A DNA stretch of 62,663 bases, the filler included, from an uncultured Myxococcia bacterium (GTDB lineage: Bacteria > CAZTWC01), in the NCBI GenBank assembly GCA_964617105.1. It is 11 parts of 11 records of this genome, joined end to end, with 100 filler letters (N's around TTAATTAATTAA, not from the genome) between each part and the next. Parts side by side here need not be neighbours in the genome. Positions count along the whole stretch, not along the records: positions 40,355 to 45,887 come from CAZTWC010000254.1; 10 more parts are not named here. One strand, written 5' to 3'. A model generated the notes under the pieces. That model made no database searches. It was not told the origin of the DNA and worked only from the letters and a program-made list of their open reading frames with translations. Positions 2,362 to 57,185 of this stretch are shown piece by piece. Made by a program: the position numbers and the translations under genes. How positions within the stretch are numbered: the first letter of the stretch is position 1; each line of letters starts with the position of its first letter.

Positions 2362-3450
2362 TTAAGCCACCCACAGATTTATGGCAAATCTATAGATAAA
2401 AAGCCCTTGTAGGGTAGCCATCAAGATGGTGAAACCGTATATTAGCGGTTGGTTATGCCGCCACTTTTGTACCAGGGTCATGGCTAAAAAGGGAAATGCC
2501 AACAGAGCATAGCGGCTGTATGCCATACCTTCGCCCATTAAGGCGGGAACCAGTACCAACCCCAGATATATCAGCAACCAGAAACGCTGACCCTGGGATG
2601 CCACAGGAATAATGCCGGCCAGCATGGCCGCAAATCCGCCGGCAAAGCCAGCTACATTAGCCAGGCCCAGGGAGAGGTTAGTCCGACTGGTTTTAGCCTC
2701 CATCGGTCGCAGGTATTGCCACAACAGGGCAACAGCCAGGGCAAAGGGCAGGATTAGTCCCTGGGGTCGGCAGATAGGTAGAAGTATGGCAAAAGGGATG
2801 CTATGATAGGAGTTTTTCACCTGAAAATAGTAAAGAAAACCGAACAGTAGAGATAAGAACAGCGCCTCTGTATAGATGGTGGTCAAGTAAAAGGCGGTGG
2901 GAAAACAGAGCACTAGCAGGAAACCTTGCAGACACCGCCCTGCGGGTAAATTTTGAACCCGGCTGATTCGATAAAAGAAATAGAAAAACAGCAGGCAAAA
3001 CAAACTGACCAGCAGGTATCCTGCCCTAAAGTAACCGCCCGCCAGGGGAGCCGCCAATCGGATTAGTGCCGGCAATAGGGGATAGAGGGCTGGTGATTCT
3101 GGTTGCACTTTGGCGTAGGTTTTATAACCGTATTTGGCTATAGCCAGATAGTGTTGTCCATCCCAGTGACTGAAAGGGGAAGGCAGAATTTTAGCTGGTG
3201 AAGGCTTACGTTGAAGGAAGGCCTCCTTGTATTGTAAATGATAGTGGAAATTCCAGGAGTTGAAGATTATTGGAGAGGAGAAATAGGCCATGGTTAAAAA
3301 CAGAAAAATGGCAATTTTCCAGAAAAAAAATATTAGTAGAAGATGTTTATAAGGTTTGATCTTATTAAGGATTCGTGCAAAGGAGGGAAGAGGATGTTTT
3401 TTTATCTTAGGTTCAGCGTCCATGCTGTTAGCGGCGGGCTCAGTGTCCAT
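2362..3450 (-). CDS. PIG-V-like membrane mannosyltransferase family protein
   Basis: WDGQHYLAIAKYGY...ALYPLLPALIR and YTEALF motifs, multiple TM segments. Start uncertain (ATG at 3450 or 3423). Confidence 0.7.
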   Translation of the reverse strand: MDTEPAANSMDAEPKIKKHPLPSFARILNKIKPYKHLLLIFFFWKIAIFLFLTMAYFSSPIIFNSWNFHYHLQYKEAFLQRKPSPAKILPSPFSHWDGQHYLAIAKYGYKTYAKVQPESPALYPLLPALIRLAAPLAGGYFRAGYLLVSLFCLLFFYFFYRISRVQNLPAGRCLQGFLLVLCFPTAFYLTTIYTEALFLSLLFGFLYYFQVKNSYHSIPFAILLPICRPQGLILPFALAVALLWQYLRPMEAKTSRTNLSLGLANVAGFAGGFAAMLAGIIPVASQGQRFWLLIYLGLVLVPALMGEGMAYSRYALLAFPFLAMTLVQKWRHNQPLIYGFTILMATLQGLFIYRFAINLWVA

Positions 3451-3454
3451 GCTG

Positions 3455-4459
3455 TTAGCGTAGGCCTTGTTTTTTAAGGTAATCAATTACCATGGCTGGA
3501 TAATCGGTTATAATACCATCAACCCCTACTTTTATTGCCTGTCTCAGGTATTTTTCATCGTTTATGGTCCAAGTGGCGACCTTTACACCCGCTTTTTGGA
3601 GTCGCTGGACCTCTTTTTTTATCAGCAGTTGTTTACCTATTGAGGCAATATCTGCCTTGATTGATTTGACCGCACCCAACATATCCAGGAGTTGGTAATC
3701 TTCAAAAAGTTGGGCGGTTTTAATCTGGGGCTGTTTTTGTTTCACCAGGGCCAGGGTACGGTAATCAAAAGATTGGATTGTCACCCTGGAAGCCAATCTT
3801 TCCTCGGCGATTACTTTCAGCAATAGTTCTACAAAAAGGTCTGGAGATGCGGTTTTTTGTTCGGGAAAAAGATTTTTAACCTTGGTTTCAATATCAAATT
3901 TTACCTCTTTTTTTCCCAATTGTTTTACCAGACGAAAAACCTCTTTTAAAGTGGGAGGAGAGGTGCCGGGTATCTTTTTTTGATGGGGGAAGTTTGGATT
4001 TATTTGGTTTACTTTCCCTCCGCAGTCATACTGTTTAACCTGTTTTAGAGTAAGGTTTTTAATCAAGGCCATGGGGCCTTGCGGGGCAGGATTTTTTCCT
4101 TTAAAGGTGCAATTTTGAGGGGAAAAAGCAGGGTCGTGACTCAAGACAATTTGTGAGTCTTTGGTTATCATCACATCCAACTCCAGCACATCCACTCCAA
4201 CTTTTAGTGCATATTTAAAGGCGGGCAGGGTGTTTTCCGGATATTTGCCCCGGGCACCACGGTGCCCTTCCACCCAAATCTTTTTTTTACTTTTGAAACC
4301 GTTCTGTTTTTTAGTTTGGGAACGTTTAACCGTATTTTTAGTCCTGGCCTGGGAGGATGACCAAAATAATTGCCCAACTATAAGGGCGGTAAGGCAGAAG
4401 AAGAGGATCGCAACCTGTATTAGTTTATGGTAAATGGTTTTATTGTTGCTGGATAACAT
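3455..4459 (-). CDS. Glycerophosphodiester phosphodiesterase (GDPD family), N-terminally anchored
   Basis: GHRGARG.YPENT, ELDV, SHD, DIETK, IQSFD, WTIND and GIITDYP motifs. Confidence 0.92.
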   Translation of the reverse strand: MLSSNNKTIYHKLIQVAILFFCLTALIVGQLFWSSSQARTKNTVKRSQTKKQNGFKSKKKIWVEGHRGARGKYPENTLPAFKYALKVGVDVLELDVMITKDSQIVLSHDPAFSPQNCTFKGKNPAPQGPMALIKNLTLKQVKQYDCGGKVNQINPNFPHQKKIPGTSPPTLKEVFRLVKQLGKKEVKFDIETKVKNLFPEQKTASPDLFVELLLKVIAEERLASRVTIQSFDYRTLALVKQKQPQIKTAQLFEDYQLLDMLGAVKSIKADIASIGKQLLIKKEVQRLQKAGVKVATWTINDEKYLRQAIKVGVDGIITDYPAMVIDYLKKQGLR

Positions 4460-4574
4460 TGATAACTACTCTTTTTATTTAGTGTAAGTACCTTCAAGAT
4501 TTGATGAAAACACTTTAAATTAGATTACCTCTAATATAAATTTTTAACAAGAAAAAATCTAGATCTATTAAGGC

Positions 4575-4808
4575 TTATCCCCCCCCACTCATTAGTAGAA
4601 AATTCACCTCCTGGTCAGGTTTGATTGTAGTTTCTGGAGAGCATTTTTCTCCATCGATAACAATCTGCACCCATTTCATCTCCTGGTCAGTATAACCAAG
4701 TTGTTGCACCAGGTCACTAAGAGAGCAATGGTCCGGAACTTCAATCTCCCGGGAAACCTGGGGCCAGGGTCTGCGCATCAAACCGAAAAAAGTAACAGTT
4801 ATTTTCAT
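4575..4808 (-). CDS. MoaD/ThiS-family sulfur carrier protein
   Basis: 77 aa, ubiquitin-like size, MKITVTFFG start and C-terminal SGGG. Confidence 0.85.
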   Translation of the reverse strand: MKITVTFFGLMRRPWPQVSREIEVPDHCSLSDLVQQLGYTDQEMKWVQIVIDGEKCSPETTIKPDQEVNFLLMSGGG

Positions 4809-5760: not shown

Positions 5761-5860
5761 NNNNNNNNNNNNNNNNNNNNNNNNNNNNNNNNNNNNNNNN
5801 NNNNTTAATTAATTAANNNNNNNNNNNNNNNNNNNNNNNNNNNNNNNNNNNNNNNNNNNN
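5761..5860. other. Artificial contig linker (N44-TTAATTAATTAA-N44), first of ten
   Basis: Identical 100-nt linkers at 5761-5860, 11550-11649, 17335-17434, 23108-23207, 28857-28956, 34597-34696, 40255-40354, 45888-45987, 51498-51597 and 57086-57185. The core has stops in all six frames. Separate internal scaffold gaps lie at 30772-30802, 37038-37079 and 48685-48750. Confidence 0.98.
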
Positions 5861-11414: not shown

Positions 11415-11649
11415 TTGTCTAGGAACAAAATGAAAAGAAAACAGGGAAAATAATTTTTCCTTTAATTCCAATATGTTGTAAGTTTTTGTCCCAGTGTAAA
11501 ACATATCCGAAGGTCTTTAATTTGGTTTTCTTAAGTAATTTTAACCCATNNNNNNNNNNNNNNNNNNNNNNNNNNNNNNNNNNNNNNNNNNNNTTAATTA
11601 ATTAANNNNNNNNNNNNNNNNNNNNNNNNNNNNNNNNNNNNNNNNNNNN

Positions 11650-35451: not shown

Positions 35452-37900
35452 TCGAAATCAGTCCCAATTGATCGGTGCGTAAAATCTTACTTCCCAAAAA
35501 ATTATAGGTTTCCACTACCCGAGGGCGAGGGAAATTGAAGTTGTGATGCCGGCCGCACTGGATTACGGCGAATTGGGGCTTGGCCGCGTATAAAAAATCG
35601 CGGTTTAATGATGTTTCGCTGCCATGATGCGGCACTTTCAATACTGTCACCGGCTCTTTGATAAGCGGTGCTACAATTTTTTGTCCCTCCTCCTCTATAT
35701 CCCCGGTCAAAAGGAGTTTGAACTGTCCATATTGAATTTGTATCACCAGGGAGTTATCGTTCAGGGAGAGTTGGGGGTAATAACCAGGCTGGTTTGGGGG
35801 GCGTAAAGGATGTAGTACCTTCAGGTTGACCCGGCCAATACTAAATTGGTTAAAAGATTTGTTAAAACGGAGAAAACTGGTGCCCTGTTTTTTTAATAAA
35901 TTTATTAAGTGGTCATATTTATTCCATTCAACTGTCTGGTCACTGTGTATGAACCATTGGACAGGGAAAATTGAAGCCGGAGTTAAAAGACCTAGCAGGT
36001 GATCAGGATGGGGGTGACTGAGCATCATAAAATCTATTTTGGTCACTTGTCTGGTCAGCAGAAAGGGAAGGATGTGCCGTTTTCCAGTGTCCAAACGGCC
36101 GCGGTAGTCGCCACCTCCGTCTATCAGCATATTTTTTCCGTCAGGGAACTCGATGAACACCGCGTCCCCATGTCCTACCGCCAAAAAGTGGATATTCATT
36201 TTTCCGTCGTTGGGCTGGAAAAAACTTATTTCGACCCAGAAAAGCAATCTCCCTAACAGCCAAACCAGGAGCAACAGCCAGGTAATTTTGCCTCCGGTTA
36301 ATTTTAATTGTTCTTTTAGATTTACCAGTAAGCCCAGCAAGAGATAGTAGAGTAAAAGTTCCCAAATAGGGGGTGGAGGCAAATAGATAAAGGAGTAGGG
36401 TATGGCCACCACTTTTTGACAAAACCAAATAAGTATCTCCACCCCCTTTAGGGCGGCAAACAAAAAATATTGGGCCAGGCAGGGAGAAAAAAAAGAGATT
36501 ATCCCGGCTGCAGATGCCCAGGGAATTATCCAGAATGATACCAAAGGAATGGCGGCAAAATTGGTAATTTGCCCGATTAAAGGGACTTTAAAAAAGAAAT
36601 AATGGATTATGGGCAGGGTGCAAACAAAGGCGCACCAGGTAGTAAAAAGAATTTGCCATAAAAAGAGAAGAACTCTTTCTATTATTCCTCGATGGCCATA
36701 ATTGCCGGGCTTATCAATGGTTGTTCCGGCCAGGCACACCAAGCCATAGGTGGCGAAAAAACTGAGCAAAAAACCGACATCATCTATACGTTGATGGTTT
36801 TGCAGTAAAAGCGCCAGGGCGGCCAGAGTTAAAAAGTGGGAACTTTTGCTTTTCAAACCAAGCAGGGGTTGCAAATAGAAGAGAATAGCCATTATAGCCG
36901 CTCTAACCGTGGAGATATGTGCCCCGGTAAATAGGGTATAAAAGATTATTATTGGGATTTGCGCCAGGGAAGTGAGAAATGGGGCTGAGAAGCGGAGTAA
37001 AAGTGCTGGAAATAATTTTAATATCCGTTTTAGCAGGNNNNNNNNNNNNNNNNNNNNNNNNNNNNNNNNNNNNNNNNNNAAATGGGCGGTGGTTATCATC
37101 AAGAAGAGGTGAAAACCGGAAATAGCCAGCAAATGGGCTATACCAACCGAACTTGTCAACTCCCTGGTTTCTGGCTTCAGAGTGGAGGTCACACCGCATA
37201 AAAGCGCTAATATAATCGCCCTTTTTGGGTTTATAAACTGGCCGGCTAAGATAAAATCTGTCAATCTCTTTTTTATTATATAGAATTTACCAGCAATTTT
37301 TTGCCAAAGGGACAATGTGGTGGTCAGAGTTAATGATTGGCAGGAGATCACCTGGCCGGTGAGAAGAATTTTCTTTTTTGCCAGAAAGGCGCTGTAATTG
37401 AACCCCCCTGGATTCATTTGAGTTGGAGGGAGATAGAGTTTAGCCTTTATTATCAGTCTGGAATAAGGTTCAATCGCCGGCATACCTTTTTTAAAATACC
37501 CGGTTAGCAGTATTTTTTTCTCTACCTGAAATTCCTGGTCTTGAAAAAAAAGCCGTTCTGCTTGAAACACAAATCTCTGCCCGCCCAAAATAGGCAGGGG
37601 AAAACTGCTGCAAATTCCTTCCATAACCACCATTTTTCCATCCACCTGGGAGAAGATTGAAGTTTTAAGGGCGGCGGCCTGGTGATTTGGCGGCGATGGA
37701 TGGCTCCAACCTAAAAACAGGGCAAACAGGCAGGGGAGATAGATATGTCCCCGTTCATTTAAATTTTGGTGTGCATAGAGATAAAACAACGAAATCCCCC
37801 AGGCAGGAACCAAGAAAAGAGGATTTCCCGCAGAAGTGCTGATTAGCAGTCCGGCAGAATAAAATAGGAGAAGGTTAAGCAGTATTTGGTGGTAGAACAT
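35375..37900 (-). CDS. comEC: DNA internalization competence protein ComEC/Rec2 (contains a gap)
   Basis: NPGGFNY, HLLAISGFH, GFLLSF, VGHGDA, LIDGG, SHPHPDH, NDNS, TGDIE and KVPHHGS. Confidence 0.95.
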   Translation of the reverse strand: MFYHQILLNLLLFYSAGLLISTSAGNPLFLVPAWGISLFYLYAHQNLNERGHIYLPCLFALFLGWSHPSPPNHQAAALKTSIFSQVDGKMVVMEGICSSFPLPILGGQRFVFQAERLFFQDQEFQVEKKILLTGYFKKGMPAIEPYSRLIIKAKLYLPPTQMNPGGFNYSAFLAKKKILLTGQVISCQSLTLTTTLSLWQKIAGKFYIIKKRLTDFILAGQFINPKRAIILALLCGVTSTLKPETRELTSSVGIAHLLAISGFHLFLMITTAHXXXXXXXXXXXXXXXLLKRILKLFPALLLRFSAPFLTSLAQIPIIIFYTLFTGAHISTVRAAIMAILFYLQPLLGLKSKSSHFLTLAALALLLQNHQRIDDVGFLLSFFATYGLVCLAGTTIDKPGNYGHRGIIERVLLFLWQILFTTWCAFVCTLPIIHYFFFKVPLIGQITNFAAIPLVSFWIIPWASAAGIISFFSPCLAQYFLFAALKGVEILIWFCQKVVAIPYSFIYLPPPPIWELLLYYLLLGLLVNLKEQLKLTGGKITWLLLLVWLLGRLLFWVEISFFQPNDGKMNIHFLAVGHGDAVFIEFPDGKNMLIDGGGDYRGRLDTGKRHILPFLLTRQVTKIDFMMLSHPHPDHLLGLLTPASIFPVQWFIHSDQTVEWNKYDHLINLLKKQGTSFLRFNKSFNQFSIGRVNLKVLHPLRPPNQPGYYPQLSLNDNSLVIQIQYGQFKLLLTGDIEEEGQKIVAPLIKEPVTVLKVPHHGSETSLNRDFLYAAKPQFAVIQCGRHHNFNFPRPRVVETYNFLGSKILRTDQLGLISISTDGVSLSLRLRQGAETWYRLNPD

Positions 37901-40254: not shown

Positions 40255-40355
40255 NNNNNNNNNNNNNNNNNNNNNNNNNNNNNNNNNNNNNNNNNNNNTT
40301 AATTAATTAANNNNNNNNNNNNNNNNNNNNNNNNNNNNNNNNNNNNNNNNNNNNT

Positions 40356-40409
40356 TCCCACGGTTCTCACGGCTCCCACGGTTCTCACGGCTCCCACGGC
40401 TCCTGGTAG
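40356..40409 (+). CDS. hxsA: C-terminus of a His-Xaa-Ser repeat precursor peptide (...SHGSHGSHGSHGSHGSW*), 5' truncated
   Basis: tcc cac ggt tct cac ggc tcc cac ggt tct cac ggc tcc cac ggc tcc tgg tag. Repeat variation is only at synonymous third positions. Same contig as hxsB. Confidence 0.85.
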   Translation, partial: SHGSHGSHGSHGSHGSW

Positions 40410-40411
40410 AT

Positions 40412-41344
40412 CTATTTTTGGGCGAGCCCTAAGAACGAATATAACTCCTCATCACCAAATCGTTCCAAATACTCTGCACTTATTCCCGAACAACTATTTT
40501 TTTGGGTACACTGGATACATTTATTTGAAAAGGGTTCCGTAGAAAGGGGGTCGGGTTGAAGGTAAACTTCTTTAGTATCCCACAATTTCTTCTGGGGAAG
40601 TTTTCGGTTATCAGGTGATAAAATCAGGCAATGGGGCATACCGCTGACCTGGAGCCATAAACTTTTTTTATGGAACGAGTTGGCCGCTATATTCAGTTGT
40701 TTTTTTATCATTCCCAGCCGGGGAACATATTGTAGAAAACTCAATTTGTCATTTTGATATGGTTGCAGCATCTCAATGTTTAAAGTTGAAATCCCGATTT
40801 TTTTTAAAATAGGTATCCACAAGAGGAGATTGCGATAATTACAACGGGTAAGTACCTGGGTAACAGTGATAGATGAAGTGTTTTTGGCCAGATTGAGAAG
40901 TCCTTTAATGGTTTGATTAAAACTACCATTTACCTGGGTATGAAACTGGTGAATATCGGCACTGGGCCCATAAATTGTAAAGATGTAGTGGTTTACTCCC
41001 AAATGGAATAGATGCTCTGCAAAGGTGGGATAGGCCAGCCGGCGTCCATTGGTATGAAGACAAATATCTACAAAGCCAAGATCTTTGACGGTTTTAAGGA
41101 GTTTATCCAAATTATCATACAGGGTTGGTTCCCCTCCGGTTAGCAGCACTTTTGAGATTCCGGCTGAAGCAGCCGCCTTTAATTGATTTTCAAAATCAGC
41201 CAATCCAGGGGTATCGCCGTTCCTTTCGGTCTCATTTCCATAACGGTTCAGACAGAAAAAGCAGTGATTATTACAGGAAGTTGGCAATTTAAGGACAACC
41301 ATCTGGCTGTCTGGTTTGGTTGAATTAGATTTATTGAGATTCAT
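40412..41344 (-). CDS. Radical SAM protein, HxsC-like paralog 1
   Basis: CNNHCFFC, TGGEPT, TNGRRL, MPHC and C-terminal CIQC...CSGI..YL..FG.EEL. Confidence 0.8.
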   Translation of the reverse strand: MNLNKSNSTKPDSQMVVLKLPTSCNNHCFFCLNRYGNETERNGDTPGLADFENQLKAAASAGISKVLLTGGEPTLYDNLDKLLKTVKDLGFVDICLHTNGRRLAYPTFAEHLFHLGVNHYIFTIYGPSADIHQFHTQVNGSFNQTIKGLLNLAKNTSSITVTQVLTRCNYRNLLLWIPILKKIGISTLNIEMLQPYQNDKLSFLQYVPRLGMIKKQLNIAANSFHKKSLWLQVSGMPHCLILSPDNRKLPQKKLWDTKEVYLQPDPLSTEPFSNKCIQCTQKNSCSGISAEYLERFGDEELYSFLGLAQK

Positions 41345-41405
41345 AAAGAGTATAGTTCAATATCAAATTTACAATTATGATTTTGCCTGCTATGATCTTG
41401 CCAAT

Positions 41406-41493
41406 TAGTGTTCGTCCGAAGGCCTGAGGGCAAGATATAGAATCGATCTTAGGCAATTTATCTTTTTTAGTCAATTTTATCTGACGGACTTTA
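41406..41493. mobile_element. Degenerate second copy of the MITE-like element
   Basis: TAGTGTTCGTCCGA...TCTGACGGACTTTA ends. Shares CCGAAGGCCTGAG.GCA.GAT and AGGCAATT with 30022-30115. Confidence 0.55.
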
Positions 41494-41497
41494 TCTT

Positions 41498-42388
41498 ATG
41501 CGCGCCCTGATTAAAGTCGGTTACCAATGTAACAATAACTGTGTTTTCTGTCACAGCCAGGGATTAGAGCCCAAACTTGGACCCAACTCTCTTGTATTAG
41601 CCAAGATAGAGAAGGCTGTGCAAAAGGGGGCAATCATGGTTGCCTTTTCTGGGGGAGAGCCAACCATTCGTCCGGAGTTGGTAAAATGGGCAAAATATTG
41701 TCAGCAAAGAGGGATTGCTATTGGGCTGATAACCAATGGACGGATGTTGTCATATAAAGAGTTGACTCGAGAATTGGTAGATTTAGGGCTAAAGTATGTC
41801 CATATCGGGCTGCATGGCGCTACTGCCAGGCAACACAATAGTATAGTGGGCAGTGAATCTTTTAACCAGGTTTTACCGGCCATTGAGAATCTGGCTAAAT
41901 TAAAAGTGGAGTTGGTGCTTAATACAGTTATTACTCCCTTGAATTTGAACAGTTTGGTTGATATTTTCAATCTGTTGAGATCTTTTCAGGGGATCGGTTT
42001 AAAATTTTCTATGGCTGAACCAAAAGGCGCCGCCTATACTACCATGGAAAAAGTGGTGCCTCACCTGAAAAAGGCAGCGGAAAAAGTGATAGAGGTATTT
42101 ACTTATGCCCAAAAAAGGGCCAATGGATGGCGGCTTTGTTATGAGGGCATACCTTTTTGTCTTCTTAAAGGCTGGGAACATCTCTATGGCGGATTGCGTC
42201 AACATGGTTTCTACATGATGTCCGAAGCCTATGAGACCGCATTTTATCCAGTAGATGACCGGAATAAAATGAAGACAAAACGATGTGAGAACTGTACCCA
42301 TTACGAAAAGTGCCCCGGTCTATACACAAATTACTTTGAAACTTATGGCGATAATGAATTGCAACCTTATACGAGGCTTTCAAAATGA
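41498..42388 (+). CDS. Radical SAM protein, HxsC-like paralog 2
   Basis: CNNNCVFC, SGGEPT, TNGRML, IPFC and CENC...CPGL..YF..YG.NEL. Confidence 0.82.
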   Translation: MRALIKVGYQCNNNCVFCHSQGLEPKLGPNSLVLAKIEKAVQKGAIMVAFSGGEPTIRPELVKWAKYCQQRGIAIGLITNGRMLSYKELTRELVDLGLKYVHIGLHGATARQHNSIVGSESFNQVLPAIENLAKLKVELVLNTVITPLNLNSLVDIFNLLRSFQGIGLKFSMAEPKGAAYTTMEKVVPHLKKAAEKVIEVFTYAQKRANGWRLCYEGIPFCLLKGWEHLYGGLRQHGFYMMSEAYETAFYPVDDRNKMKTKRCENCTHYEKCPGLYTNYFETYGDNELQPYTRLSK

Positions 42389-43839
42389 ATCCAACTACTT
42401 TTAACGCCCGCCAGATTGAAGACAATTACCTGATAACCAATATGGTAGGCCAATATCTTTTTTTAAACCAGGCTGAATATGAGAGTTTTTATAGAGGTGA
42501 GGTAGAAGCCGATTCAGAACTGTGGAACCGCTTGAAAGATAGCAATTTTATAGAAGATTTGGTGGACCAGAATGAGTTACAGCAGAAATATCAGGACCGT
42601 AAAACCTTTTTGGCCCATGGCCCTACCCTGCATATTTTTGTCCTCACTCTCAGGTGTAATCAAACTTGCCTCTACTGTCATGCCAGCCGAACCAAAGAGA
42701 AGAGTTCAAGCGGCACTTATGATATGAATGCAGATACCGCCCGTCAGGCGGTTGATTTGGCCTTTAAAACCACGGCACCATCTTTTACCATTGAATTTCA
42801 GGGGGGTGAACCTCTGCTGAATTATCCTCTGATTAAACAAATCGTTGCCCAGGCAAAAGAGAAGAACAAAACTCTTCGGCGGCTGGTTGAGTTTACCCTG
42901 GTTTCAAATTTGGCAGCCATGAATGAAGATATTCTTCAATTTATACTAGATAATCGTATTCAGGTCTGCACCTCTATAGATGGCCCAAAAGAGTTACATA
43001 ACCAGCAGAGAAAAATGGCAGGAGGAGATGCTTTTGACCAAAGTGTCAAGTGGATCAAGCGTATAAACCAGGCCTATCAAAAACAGGGGTTGTCATCTGA
43101 TGTTTACCATGTTGAGGCTCTGATTACTGTTACCAGCAAAACGCTTAAATATGCCCGGCAGATAGTTGATACATACCGGGAACTGGGAGTAAACGCCATC
43201 TATCTCCGGCCCATGGACCCCTATGGCTTTGCCGCCAAAAATAAAGGCGACCTGGTCTATTCCATTGATGACTACCTGGCCTTTTACCATGAAGTGGTGG
43301 ATTATATTATAGAGTTGAATTTACAGGGTGAGCAGATGCTGGAGAGAAACGCCGCCATATTTCTAACTAAAATATTGAGTGGCAAAGACCCTAATTTCCT
43401 CGATATCCGCTCTCCATGCGGAGCCGGCATAGGACAGGTTACCTATAATTATGACGGAAAAATATTCACCTGTGATGAAGCCCGCATGCTCTACGAGATG
43501 GGAGATGACTTTTTTCAGATAGGTGATGTATCTGAATGTTCATACAACCAGATTATTGATCATCCCACGGTGCGCTCTATGATTATCGCCTCCAATTTGG
43601 AAGGGGTTCCCGACTGTTATCATTGCGCCTATTATCCCTATTGCGGTGTCTGTCCGGTTCATAACTACCATACTTCCGGCAGTATTCACGGGCTGATGGG
43701 TTCCAGTTCCTGGTGTAAAATTCATAAGGGTATTCAGGATTACCTGTTTAAAAAACTTTTAGCCAGAGATGACAAAACTATCGAGATCTTCAATCGTTGG
43801 ATAGAGGTGAGAAACCGGGATCACTATCTGCACGGGTAG
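42385..43839 (+). CDS. hxsB: His-Xaa-Ser system radical SAM/SPASM maturase HxsB
   Basis: YLITNMVGQYLFL, GPTLHIFVLTLRCNQTCLYCHAS, IEFQGGEPLLN, DIRSPCGAGIGQ, TCDEARM and SPASM CYHCAYYPYCGVCP. Confidence 0.9.
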   Translation: MNPTTFNARQIEDNYLITNMVGQYLFLNQAEYESFYRGEVEADSELWNRLKDSNFIEDLVDQNELQQKYQDRKTFLAHGPTLHIFVLTLRCNQTCLYCHASRTKEKSSSGTYDMNADTARQAVDLAFKTTAPSFTIEFQGGEPLLNYPLIKQIVAQAKEKNKTLRRLVEFTLVSNLAAMNEDILQFILDNRIQVCTSIDGPKELHNQQRKMAGGDAFDQSVKWIKRINQAYQKQGLSSDVYHVEALITVTSKTLKYARQIVDTYRELGVNAIYLRPMDPYGFAAKNKGDLVYSIDDYLAFYHEVVDYIIELNLQGEQMLERNAAIFLTKILSGKDPNFLDIRSPCGAGIGQVTYNYDGKIFTCDEARMLYEMGDDFFQIGDVSECSYNQIIDHPTVRSMIIASNLEGVPDCYHCAYYPYCGVCPVHNYHTSGSIHGLMGSSSWCKIHKGIQDYLFKKLLARDDKTIEIFNRWIEVRNRDHYLHG

Positions 43840-44771
43840 AACTCCTCCCAGCCATAGTGCTTGATATAGGTGCCCCATACCCCGGGGCAGACTTTATCAT
43901 ATTTACACTCTCCACAACTATTTTGTTTAACTCTGTAGAGTTTGTCCAACTGTGCTCTGGTAATTGGTTTTTCCAATGATTCATTTGGCTTAAAATGTTT
44001 GTGTTTTTCTACGTATCCCCGGTTGTAATCAGGGATAGATTCAGTGAGACAAAGAGGAATATCTACTAAAAAGGCCTGTGGTTGTTGCTCCTGGCACTGT
44101 TTTAAAAATAAGGACATTTGTGAGGCAGTATTGGTATATGATGGGAATAGCCGCTCAAAATGGGAAGCAGCCCGGCCTTTGGGCTGCATAACATTGAAAA
44201 TAATCTGGTCAACGCTCTTATTGCGCAAAAAGTGATAAATCTCTCCTAAAAACGGCAGGTTGCGTTTGGTAATAACTGTGCTGGTATGCAATTTTATCCC
44301 ATAGTTTTTAAGCCGGCTTAGATTTTCAAGTCCCAAAACCGTATGGCCAAAAGCACCTTTGGTTCTCACCAGAGAGTCATGCAGTTTGGCCTGGTGTCCA
44401 TGTATGGAGATATAGAAAAAATTGATACCCGCTTTGATCAATTTTTTACAGTAATCAAGATAGGCCAGCCGCCGGCCATTGGTCATAATACTGCGCCGAA
44501 TGTACCCCAAATTTTTAGCCAGGTTTGCATACTTTGGCAAGGATTCCACCAGAGTAGGCTCGCCTGAGGTGAAACATACCTCTTCACGGGACTGGGTTTG
44601 GGTGAGAATCTGTTTGACCAGCTCCGGGGTCAGGGAGGAATTAACTTTGATGCGCTCTTCACGGTCAGATTCCATGCAGAATATGCAGTTGTTATTACAA
44701 ACCGGACCAATATTTATATGGAGGCGTTCCTGCCCGGAGGTTATCCGTTTTATGATATTGTTTTTAGCCAT
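43824..44771 (-). CDS. Radical SAM protein, HxsC-like paralog 3
   Basis: CNNNCIFC, TSGEPT, TNGRRL, IPLC and CGEC...CPGV..YI..YGWEEF. Confidence 0.82.
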   Translation of the reverse strand: MAKNNIIKRITSGQERLHINIGPVCNNNCIFCMESDREERIKVNSSLTPELVKQILTQTQSREEVCFTSGEPTLVESLPKYANLAKNLGYIRRSIMTNGRRLAYLDYCKKLIKAGINFFYISIHGHQAKLHDSLVRTKGAFGHTVLGLENLSRLKNYGIKLHTSTVITKRNLPFLGEIYHFLRNKSVDQIIFNVMQPKGRAASHFERLFPSYTNTASQMSLFLKQCQEQQPQAFLVDIPLCLTESIPDYNRGYVEKHKHFKPNESLEKPITRAQLDKLYRVKQNSCGECKYDKVCPGVWGTYIKHYGWEEFYPCR

Positions 44772-45116: not shown

Positions 45117-45635
45117 TTTTTTATCCACATAATCGAGGAAAGAACAAAAGTCAATATTGATACAACAAAACTAGACAATTGTATCTTTGAAATTTCTCAA
45201 AATGGAAATATCATGCCCCTGATAAAAATGGTAGAGAACTTCCTGCACAGCCTCTCTTTCCGCGATTTTCAGAAATTTGACGAAAAGTATGTCAAATTGG
45301 CCATTTTTGCCTATCTATCCCTGACCAACCTCTATATTACCAAAACCGAATACGAAGTCGAAGACGGCTATATCGACCTGGCACTTTTGGAACGCTCCCC
45401 CTACGATGTCAATTACCAATTTGTCTTTGAATTAAAATATATGAAAAAGGCGGATGCCGAAGATGACAAGAAAAGAGAGAAAGAGAAAAAGAGAAAACAG
45501 ATTCTTTTCAACGATGCCTTGAAAAAACTGCAAAAATATCGCCAGTCGGATCAGTTTTTAACCATGAAAAACCTGAAAACTTTCATCCTGATTTTCGTTG
45601 GCGACAAATGTGAAGTCTGTGAGGAAGTGACATGA
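45117..45635 (+). pseudogene. C-terminal fragment of an AAA-ATPase-like / PD-(D/E)XK nuclease gene
   Basis: LSFRDFQKFDEKYVK, TEYEVEDGYIDL and FELKY. The frame is open upstream only to a stop at 45099 inside the REP-like sequence. No ATPase domain. Confidence 0.7.
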
Positions 45636-45987
45636 TTGCCCTCTCGCAGCAACAATTACCTCGATTTTCGACTTCGAAAAAGAAGTCTAGCAGCCACATC
45701 CAACCCCCGGTTAATCAGCGGTTGGTCAGCCGAAAACTAAGTAGGCTGTCGTCAACCAGAATCGCCCATACACCAGCGGCAATATCACCGTGACCGATCC
45801 TGTGTCCTATTTTCGGGAGGGTTAAAAACCGTGTTGTGTATGTCCCGGTGTAAAAGAGGATGAATATCGGCAGATGGCATTTTGTGGNNNNNNNNNNNNN
45901 NNNNNNNNNNNNNNNNNNNNNNNNNNNNNNNTTAATTAATTAANNNNNNNNNNNNNNNNNNNNNNNNNNNNNNNNNNNNNNNNNNNN

Positions 45988-57035: not shown

Positions 57036-57185
57036 CTTTTATCCTTAGGGCTCCCTAAAAAATAACTTCATAGTAGCGTACTGCANNNNNNNNNNNNNNN
57101 NNNNNNNNNNNNNNNNNNNNNNNNNNNNNTTAATTAATTAANNNNNNNNNNNNNNNNNNNNNNNNNNNNNNNNNNNNNNNNNNNN

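Follow-up and report, generated by a model that had tools for sequence, protein, structure and literature searches.

A divergent, rearranged fragment of a probable type-4 His-Xaa-Ser peptide-maturation system in a marine bacterium of low GC content

Results

Gene content of the locus

We analyzed a window of 62,663 nucleotides (the whole stretch of DNA studied here) from an uncultured bacterium (GenBank assembly GCA_964617105.1), which carries a short cluster of radical S-adenosylmethionine (SAM) enzyme genes and the end of a repeat-peptide gene, probably a fragment of a type-4 His-Xaa-Ser (Hxs) peptide-maturation system. The window is made of 11 separate contigs (C247 to C257) of a metagenome-assembled genome (MAG), sorted by length and joined by N...TTAATTAATTAA...N spacers, and the Hxs genes all lie on contig C254 (40355-45887; 5,533 bp, no N). 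Along this contig follow the 3′ end of a precursor gene of the HxsA4 type (40356-40409, plus strand), rSAM1 (40412-41344, minus strand), rSAM2 (41498-42388, plus strand), hxsB (42385-43839, plus strand) and rSAM3 (43824-44771, minus strand). A preliminary description of this DNA had reported a poly-His-Gly-Ser (HGS) tail, an HxsB and three small radical SAM enzymes on one contig, and we confirm the genes and their orientation as described there. Its assignment of the cluster to the His-Xaa-Ser family also holds, on the score of HxsB and on the presence of HxsC-related enzymes beside an HGS tail that matches HxsA4. All four radical SAM proteins contain CxxxCxxC and auxiliary cysteine sites, which are predicted cluster sites.

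Hxs systems are described by two sets of family models, the canonical set being TIGR03976-03979 and the type-4 set comprising the NCBIfam models HxsA4 (NF038313), HxsC4 (NF038332) and HxsD_rel (NF038315). The type-4 cassette occurs mainly in Myxococcota such as Chondromyces, Polyangium and Nannocystis, and a literature search for HxsC4, HxsA4 or HxsA2 found no paper on type 4.

HxsB and the HxsC4-like enzyme

HxsB is a radical SAM/SPASM maturase of 484 amino acids, the only one of its family in the genome, and scores 550.2 bits on TIGR03978, well over the cut-off of 370. It matches PF04055 and, weakly, SPASM, with a CxxxCxxC motif at residues 91, 95 and 98 and eight C-terminal cysteines of the SPASM type. 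The protein is 37% identical to a canonical plasmid HxsB and 48-55% identical to the HxsB of type-4 loci, and its nearest relatives of solved structure are the thioether maturase CteB (5wgg, E = 3e-19) and anSME. The start of hxsB overlaps the stop of rSAM2, and its 3′ end overlaps that of the convergent rSAM3 gene by 16 nt.

The product of rSAM3 (315 amino acids; PF04055, NF038332) is an HxsC4-like radical SAM enzyme. In a maximum-likelihood tree of 81 HxsC-like domains (quick IQ-TREE search, LG+G4), rooted on three canonical HxsC from plasmids, it falls within the HxsC4 clade with a Shimodaira-Hasegawa-like approximate likelihood ratio (SH-aLRT) support of 100, as sister to the enzymes of loci L009 and L010 (support 95). 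Its relatives number 881 among 5.8 billion proteins, the best 120 at 49-58% identity, and those that carry a name are called "radical SAM protein HxsC4" and come from Chondromyces, Polyangium and Myxococcales MAGs. Eight cysteines (C25, C29, C32, C66, C241, C286, C289 and C295) are invariant in 36 HxsC4 homologs, a pattern that would fit one auxiliary iron-sulfur (Fe-S) site. We found no solved structure of any HxsC-type enzyme. HxsB and rSAM3 are like the SPASM/twitch maturases of ribosomally synthesized and post-translationally modified peptides (RiPPs; CteB, SuiB, SkfB, anSME) in that HxsB aligns to CteB and anSME and the AlphaFold2 model of rSAM3 (predicted local distance difference test score, pLDDT, 87.6) resembles SuiB and SkfB; they differ in that the likeness of the rSAM3 fold is generic, extending also to BlsE, DesII, viperin and MoaA, with template modeling scores of at most 0.65 and identities of at most 20%. 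Elsewhere, in genome G185 (C2:1338715-1340755), two adjacent HxsC4-like matches of ~285 bits lie in open frames of 553 and 566 amino acids and may represent another paralog pair or fusions.

The precursor tail and its relatives

The bases at 40356-40406 encode a serine, five HGS repeats and a C-terminal tryptophan, S(HGS)5W, and are followed by a TAG stop at 40407-40409. The repeat DNA consists of an 18-nt tandem unit in 2.4 copies with a 100% match, and an exact tandem of this length is the kind of sequence where short-read assemblies break. The tail is the sole run of three or more H-x-S units in the 4.07-Mb genome, bar one spurious out-of-frame HLS run, and the sole match there to the HxsA4 model NF038313, which it aligns with at model positions 77-93 of 93 for a score of 21.5 bits from 17 residues only (cut-off 55). 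Three full-length precursors from related loci score 89-121 bits on the same model.

The full-length relatives suggest what the missing portion may look like. They are proteins of ~100 amino acids with an acidic leader (median net charge of -5 over the last 60 residues, no hydrophobic stretch) that conserves the pattern LPxF...(Q/E)RxISxRA..NAD...QHCS. All 47 HxsA4 open reading frames (ORFs) in related loci end in HGSW, and the 46 unmasked ones contain 4-20 HGS repeats, with a median of 13. On the canonical HxsA model TIGR03979, full-length relatives score 17 bits or nothing, and they have no hydrophobic N terminus; the genome itself has no match to this model at E ≤10. Some Sandaracinus-type loci have two HxsA4 genes upstream of HxsC4, as an adjacent pair with 12 and 17 repeats in L043 (7289-7936) and L048 (7295-7942), and as two genes ~1.2 kb apart in L052 (5649-7965), where the first is mostly masked.

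rSAM1 and rSAM2

The two remaining small enzymes are more divergent. rSAM2 (296 amino acids; PF04055) scores 143.8 bits on the HxsC4 model, and rSAM1 (310 amino acids; PF04055 at 69.9 bits), whose gene is convergent with the precursor gene, scores 94.5 bits. HxsC4 and HxsC are the best NCBIfam models of all three small proteins, which do not group with cofactor enzymes, as the preliminary description required of them. No protein of the genome reaches the HxsC equivalog cut-off (TIGR03977, 267.9 bits): rSAM1, rSAM2 and rSAM3 score 90.9, 81.9 and 100 bits, and the genome's best is 108.9. Scores of rSAM1 and rSAM2 are thus far below the cut-offs of both models. CxxxCxxC, a mid-protein cysteine in a P-x-C context and a C-terminal CxxCx5C are common to all HxsC-like proteins, among them canonical HxsC.

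In the tree, rSAM2 is the basal member of a clade of 14 rows (SH-aLRT 100), and rSAM1 belongs to a clade of eight rows (SH-aLRT 98) together with proteins near HxsC4 in L009, L058, L071, L020, L056, L037 and L078, a placement that is less sure because of its long branch (1.36). Full-length identities among the three small enzymes are 25-29%, and those to canonical HxsC are 21-26%. They had been described as paralogs; their relation to HxsC stands, and the paralogy is not recent, the three being, as judged from their sequences, separate, old and well-supported orthogroups.

rSAM2 is 38-44% identical to proteins of 19 of 80 related loci (see below). These relatives have ~600 amino acids, and the three scanned against Pfam (from L041, L058 and L009) are fusions of Radical_SAM with a class I methyltransferase; rSAM2 ends at 296 amino acids, without the methyltransferase half. 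rSAM1 is a near-orphan. Among 5.8 billion proteins it finds itself, a 98% identical fragment and then matches of ≤28% identity over most of its length. Among 1.84 billion representatives there are 97 matches at E ≤1e-30, and none of the best 150 listed exceeds 38% identity, bar one 98% fragment. Many of these matches are proteins of 600-1,400 amino acids with two to five tandem HxsC-like domains, as opposed to the single-domain genes of C254. A metagenome scan with rSAM1 added five distant relatives at 24-28% identity. Two of the five, in L099 and L100, belong to a different, low-GC Hxs-like system (GC 0.38-0.39) with an HxsB 40% identical to that of C254, a precursor (L099 6627-7055; L100 6458-6919) that has a hydrophobic N-terminal segment and HGS repeats ending in SSGW, and several radical SAM genes like that of contig C191.

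The rSAM1 and rSAM2 genes diverge from a 153-bp intergenic region (41345-41497) that holds promoter-like matches: the best on C254 (10/12, plus strand, 41368-41396) and two on the minus strand. Over the whole contig such sites number 17 against 13.5 ± 4.3 expected, which is not above chance, and a terminator scan gave a like result.

Related loci

A scan for HxsC4 in one genome per species yielded 142 encoding loci, of which 80 were kept for comparison. Almost all of these are from Myxococcota (Polyangiaceae, Nannocystaceae, Sandaracinaceae, Kofleriaceae and "Deltaproteobacteria" MAGs), with one bin labeled Chloroflexota, and their HxsC4 proteins are 47-58% identical to rSAM3. An ORF with HGS repeats is present in 46 loci, HxsB in 30 and an rSAM2-like gene in 19, 15 of the latter together with HxsA4; rSAM1 orthologs scoring at least 100 bits are found in six. 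Elsewhere, then, orthologs of the small enzymes lie within 8 kb of HxsC4, HxsA4 or HxsB, in agreement with the co-occurrence proposed earlier. Of the 26 loci with HxsB, HxsA4 and HxsC4 together, 21 have them in the order HxsB>HxsA4>HxsC4. Radical SAM ORFs beside HxsC4 are identical in L012 and L013, which come from bins labeled Myxococcales and Chloroflexota whose isolate names both start with "AMX-MBFR"; in one of these bins the contig is probably misplaced.

HxsD_rel occurs once per genome in all five Myxococcota genomes tested and always inside the locus, just upstream of hxsB in four of them and of hxsA4 in L009. Clustering of neighbors over the 80 loci, with counts that leave aside ORFs overlapping hxsB, found as conserved genes other than radical SAM enzymes only unannotated ORFs and genes for a Ser/Thr kinase, a MopE-like protein, an HD-domain protein and an acyl-CoA dehydrogenase, each in at most 12 loci. 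HxsC4 was present in only one of 121 genomes of the "phylum" of G041 (G041 itself) and in four of 61 of its "order"; a genome-level test of co-occurrence was dropped because HxsC4 is too sparse in those samples.

In G044, the genome that contains L009 and is the closest relative, at least 10 radical SAM genes are packed into 26 kb of one contig (19.5-45.3 kb). This cluster includes genes like those of contigs C191, C58 (both the 564- and the 311-amino-acid products described below) and C288 (743 amino acids), HxsC4, an rSAM2-methyltransferase fusion, HxsD_rel, HxsA4, an rSAM1-like gene, HxsB and another radical SAM gene, and the rSAM1-like gene is convergent with HxsA4, as on C254.

Further HxsC-like genes of the genome

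The count of four enzymes given at the outset was too low not only by the measure of G044: in the genome under study itself, contigs C58, C191 and C288 hold at least five additional HxsC-like genes. C191 encodes a radical SAM and methyltransferase protein of 627 amino acids (439-2322) and, at its 3′ end, the C-terminal piece of another HxsC-like gene that runs off the contig. C58 encodes HxsC-like proteins of 564 amino acids (1-1695, 5′ end cut) and 311 amino acids (1696-2631), and C288 an HxsC-like protein of 743 amino acids with a long N-terminal extension (2458-4686), preceded by a B12-radical-SAM-like protein of 817 amino acids (2-2455). Contig C465 likewise carries HxsC-like sequence. Orthologs of the genes of C58, C191 and C288 were found near HxsC4 in Myxococcota loci. 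After the radical SAM genes of C58 come a PIN-like ORF and then ORFs that resemble, over the first 60 residues only, two FtsX-type permeases and an ATP-binding cassette (ABC) ATPase.

Host, assembly and remaining features

The MAG comprises 489 contigs (4.07 Mb) and is 96.5% complete, with an estimated contamination of 3.35%. The GC content of C254 is 42.3%, matching the rest of the window, and that of C58, C191, C288 and C465 is 41-46%, as against at least 58% in all 80 related loci. The C-terminal half of the host RpoB is at most 70% identical to any match among those listed, and the named ones are MAGs of Deltaproteobacteria, Myxococcota, Binatota and Planctomycetes; HxsC4 was not found in 40 other genomes taken as nearest kin, all of them related only at the domain level. 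C254 is present in eight marine or seawater metagenome runs from two studies. The host is a marine bacterium of 42% GC from an unplaced lineage without close sequenced kin.

Logan contigs from four of the eight runs (short, depth 3-5) do not extend beyond 40355, where absence of cover proves nothing. At the other end, over 45720-45887, summed depth rises from ~4 to 24-25 in runs X1 and X2 (8-9 in X3 and X5), and several loose contig ends fall at 45631-45833 in public runs, which suggests a repeat or conserved element at the 3′ end of C254. The remainder of this contig encodes a stand-alone PD-(D/E)XK protein of 140 amino acids (45213-45635, plus strand; PF08011 PDDEXK_9, 68 bits), for which relatives show no tie to the Hxs system, and a doubtful ORF of 108 amino acids without a family match; neither was counted within the system.

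Ten spacers separate the contigs of the window (5761-5860, 11550-11649, ... 57086-57185). What lies at about 39.4-40.3 kb and beyond 45.9 kb belongs to other contigs, so those genes do not neighbor the Hxs genes. Contigs C252, C253 and C255 contain internal runs of 31, 42 and 66 N, for example within a ComEC-like ORF near 37,000.

Discussion

We consider C254 to hold a fragment of a type-4 Hxs peptide-maturation system, divergent and rearranged, with a probability of about 0.75, and we are equally confident that the system works by radical SAM maturation of a repeat peptide. Gene identities, orthology, conserved synteny and conserved cysteine sites carry this reading. C254 is like the type-4 cassette in its true HxsB, its enzyme of the HxsC4 clade, the (HGS)n-W tail as at the C terminus of HxsA4, and its accessory orthogroups, which are shared; it is unlike the cassette in its rearranged order, in the failure to detect HxsD_rel and in an HxsC4 that stays under its cut-off. 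It also differs from type-4 relatives in an rSAM2 without the methyltransferase half that the three scanned relatives have, and in the 42% GC of its host.

Several observations weigh against this reading. rSAM3 scores 452.8 bits on NF038332, where the curated cut-off is 500, a shortfall that we attribute to a shorter variable loop, since the match comes in two stretches and residues 255-275 have low pLDDT. The precursor frame is open to the first base of C254, with 17 codons seen, which indicates that the gene was cut by the assembly; its leader, repeat number and start are all outside the assembled DNA, and no other contig has an H-x-S run or shares at least 15 nt with the start of C254. The order of genes on C254 (precursor forward, rSAM1 reverse, rSAM2 and hxsB forward, HxsC4 reverse) occurs in none of the 26 comparable loci. 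HxsC4 is not strictly tied to a precursor, for in 15 of 47 loci with full flanks it stands alone, with neither HxsA4 nor HxsB within 8 kb. Even with 96.5% of the genome present, no match was found to HxsD (TIGR03976, E ≤1) or to HxsD_rel (NF038315, E ≤10), and a custom hidden Markov model of HxsD_rel, applied to all 90,451 stop-to-stop frames, found nothing better than E = 7, outside C254; an HxsD-type gene, if there is one, would most likely sit in the unassembled DNA upstream of the precursor, where L009 has its HxsD_rel. No protease or exporter conserved near the system emerged from the clustering of neighbors in the 80 loci, which weakens a classical RiPP reading. Finally, the ends of C254, C58, C191, C288 and C465 have no suffix-prefix overlap with any contig, and linkage of the further HxsC-like genes to C254 is conjectural.

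How such a system might work can be outlined from the conserved parts, and from these we infer the chemical steps, the substrate of each enzyme and the biological role. A ribosomal precursor of ~100 residues, whose leader is acidic and non-secretory, whose core is (HGS)n and whose last residue is Trp, would be recognized by HxsB, a SPASM-type maturase with two putative auxiliary Fe-S sites. HxsC4 and the other HxsC-family enzymes, each with a predicted radical SAM cluster and a four-cysteine auxiliary site, would remove hydrogen atoms from His, Gly or Ser residues within the repeats and introduce one covalent change after another (crosslinks or C-additions, for example), with methylation possible where the methyltransferase fusion is present. 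rSAM1, rSAM2 and the HxsC-like enzymes of C58, C191 and C288 would then serve the same system as accessory enzymes that tailor the peptide. For the product, a modified peptide of the RiPP kind that depends on its leader is more likely than a periplasmic protein anchored to peptidoglycan, as canonical HxsA is. The role that we favor, at somewhat under even odds, is a secreted or metal-binding natural product; a function of another kind altogether seems less likely, and antiphage defense less likely still. The His-centered crosslinks and metal binding put forward in the preliminary description are speculation.

The strongest alternative is that the locus is a functional equivalent of the canonical HXS system, in which a matured HGS product would be exported and block the entry of phage DNA. 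The preliminary description named no firmly established product for the canonical system, and a function is now published for it. HXS (HxsD-HxsB-HxsC-HxsA) defends against phages by stopping the entry of their DNA (Li et al., Nat Commun 2026, PMC13128918). Its HxsA requires a signal peptide, a peptidoglycan-binding domain and all five basic HxS repeats, and replacement of any single repeat by AAA abolished defense in Escherichia coli; a +8 Da change in HxsA was mapped to an SHRSS repeat, genetics showed the active-site cysteines of HxsB and HxsC to be needed for HxsA processing, and HxsC binds HxsD (PMC13128918). Canonical systems are found to 99.7% in Pseudomonadota and keep one gene order in 99.6% of cases (PMC13128918).

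What C254 shares with this system is substantial. Its HxsB is an equivalog by score and 37% identical to the canonical protein, the HxsC-like enzymes form a second radical SAM class with the cysteine architecture of canonical HxsC, the enzymes would likewise be needed to mature a repeat protein, and the His-x-Ser repeats that are its presumptive substrate are the functional element of HxsA in E. coli (PMC13128918). The substrates diverge, however. Canonical HxsA (192 amino acids in an Aeromonas example) combines a signal peptide, HRS/HSS repeats rich in Arg and a peptidoglycan-binding domain, whereas HxsA4 relatives are proteins of ~100 amino acids with an acidic leader and pure HGS repeats, devoid of the two export and anchoring parts that were both required in PMC13128918. 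The enzymes diverge as well: canonical HxsC has an extra N-terminal domain of ~100 amino acids, absent from all type-4 enzymes, and forms a separate clade, and the canonical system has one HxsC where C254 has several paralogs, none of them an equivalog (genome best 108.9 against 267.9 bits), with no HxsD in the genome. The conserved type-4 neighbors that we found are not defense genes, and PADLOC gave only weak, generic viperin cross-matches, in a 2023 release that predates HXS. Because type-4 precursors resemble leader-core RiPP precursors and are without export or anchoring parts, we hold peptide maturation to be about 0.75 probable and regard an antiphage function as unlikely.

Within the maturation reading, a more specific proposal is that type 4 is an assembly line in which each HxsC orthogroup performs one radical step per His-Gly-Ser, giving a repetitively crosslinked or heterocyclic, imidazole-rich polymer (e.g., a metallophore or redox-active peptide) and not a phage-defense effector, and that the C254 lineage has a reduced variant without an HxsD-type partner or the methyltransferase half. 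We advance this as a doubtful conjecture.

It is very improbable that rSAM1 and rSAM2 are unrelated cofactor or housekeeping enzymes that lie beside hxsB by chance. Both are far under every curated cut-off, MoaA and heme-synthase models match them at 55-84 bits, and protein searches found no close ortholog of rSAM1 anywhere; against this, their best models are HxsC4 and HxsC, both carry the P-x-C and CxxCx5C of HxsC, the clades to which they belong consist solely of proteins encoded within 8 kb of HxsC4, the stop/start overlap predicts translational coupling of rSAM2 to hxsB, and the rSAM1-like gene of L009 is also convergent with HxsA4. Just as improbable is a myxobacterial contaminant or chimera binned into the MAG, or a decaying remnant: the estimated contamination, the almost exclusively myxococcal relatives of HxsC4 and its absence from the 40 genomes taken as nearest kin would suit a contaminant, yet C254 has the GC content of the window and of the four other contigs that carry further HxsC-like genes, unlike any of the 80 related loci, and none of the four radical SAM ORFs is broken or lacks a conserved cysteine, while the truncation of the precursor falls exactly at the contig end.

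The locus is not a new kind of system. It had been taken for a new expansion of the canonical four-gene system, and the variant is already catalogued in NCBIfam as HxsA4, HxsC4 and HxsD_rel; C254 is a divergent, rearranged and incompletely assembled representative of it, unusual in its gene order, in having no detectable HxsD-type gene and in its 42% GC host of unplaced lineage. With a truncated precursor on a 5.5-kb contig of low coverage it makes a poor specimen, and cultured strains of Polyangium, Nannocystis or Chondromyces that have the whole cassette offer a better start. Its meaning lies in what it adds to the family. The type-4 branch extends beyond high-GC Myxococcota into a marine lineage, and its accessory enzymes fall into stable orthogroups. 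The system may be able to do without HxsD_rel and the methyltransferase half, a question on which the assembly gap upstream of the precursor bears. The function of canonical HXS is a recent finding; since type 4 brings many radical SAM enzymes to bear on a repeat substrate of great simplicity, it is well suited for learning the chemistry that Hxs enzymes perform on His-x-Ser.

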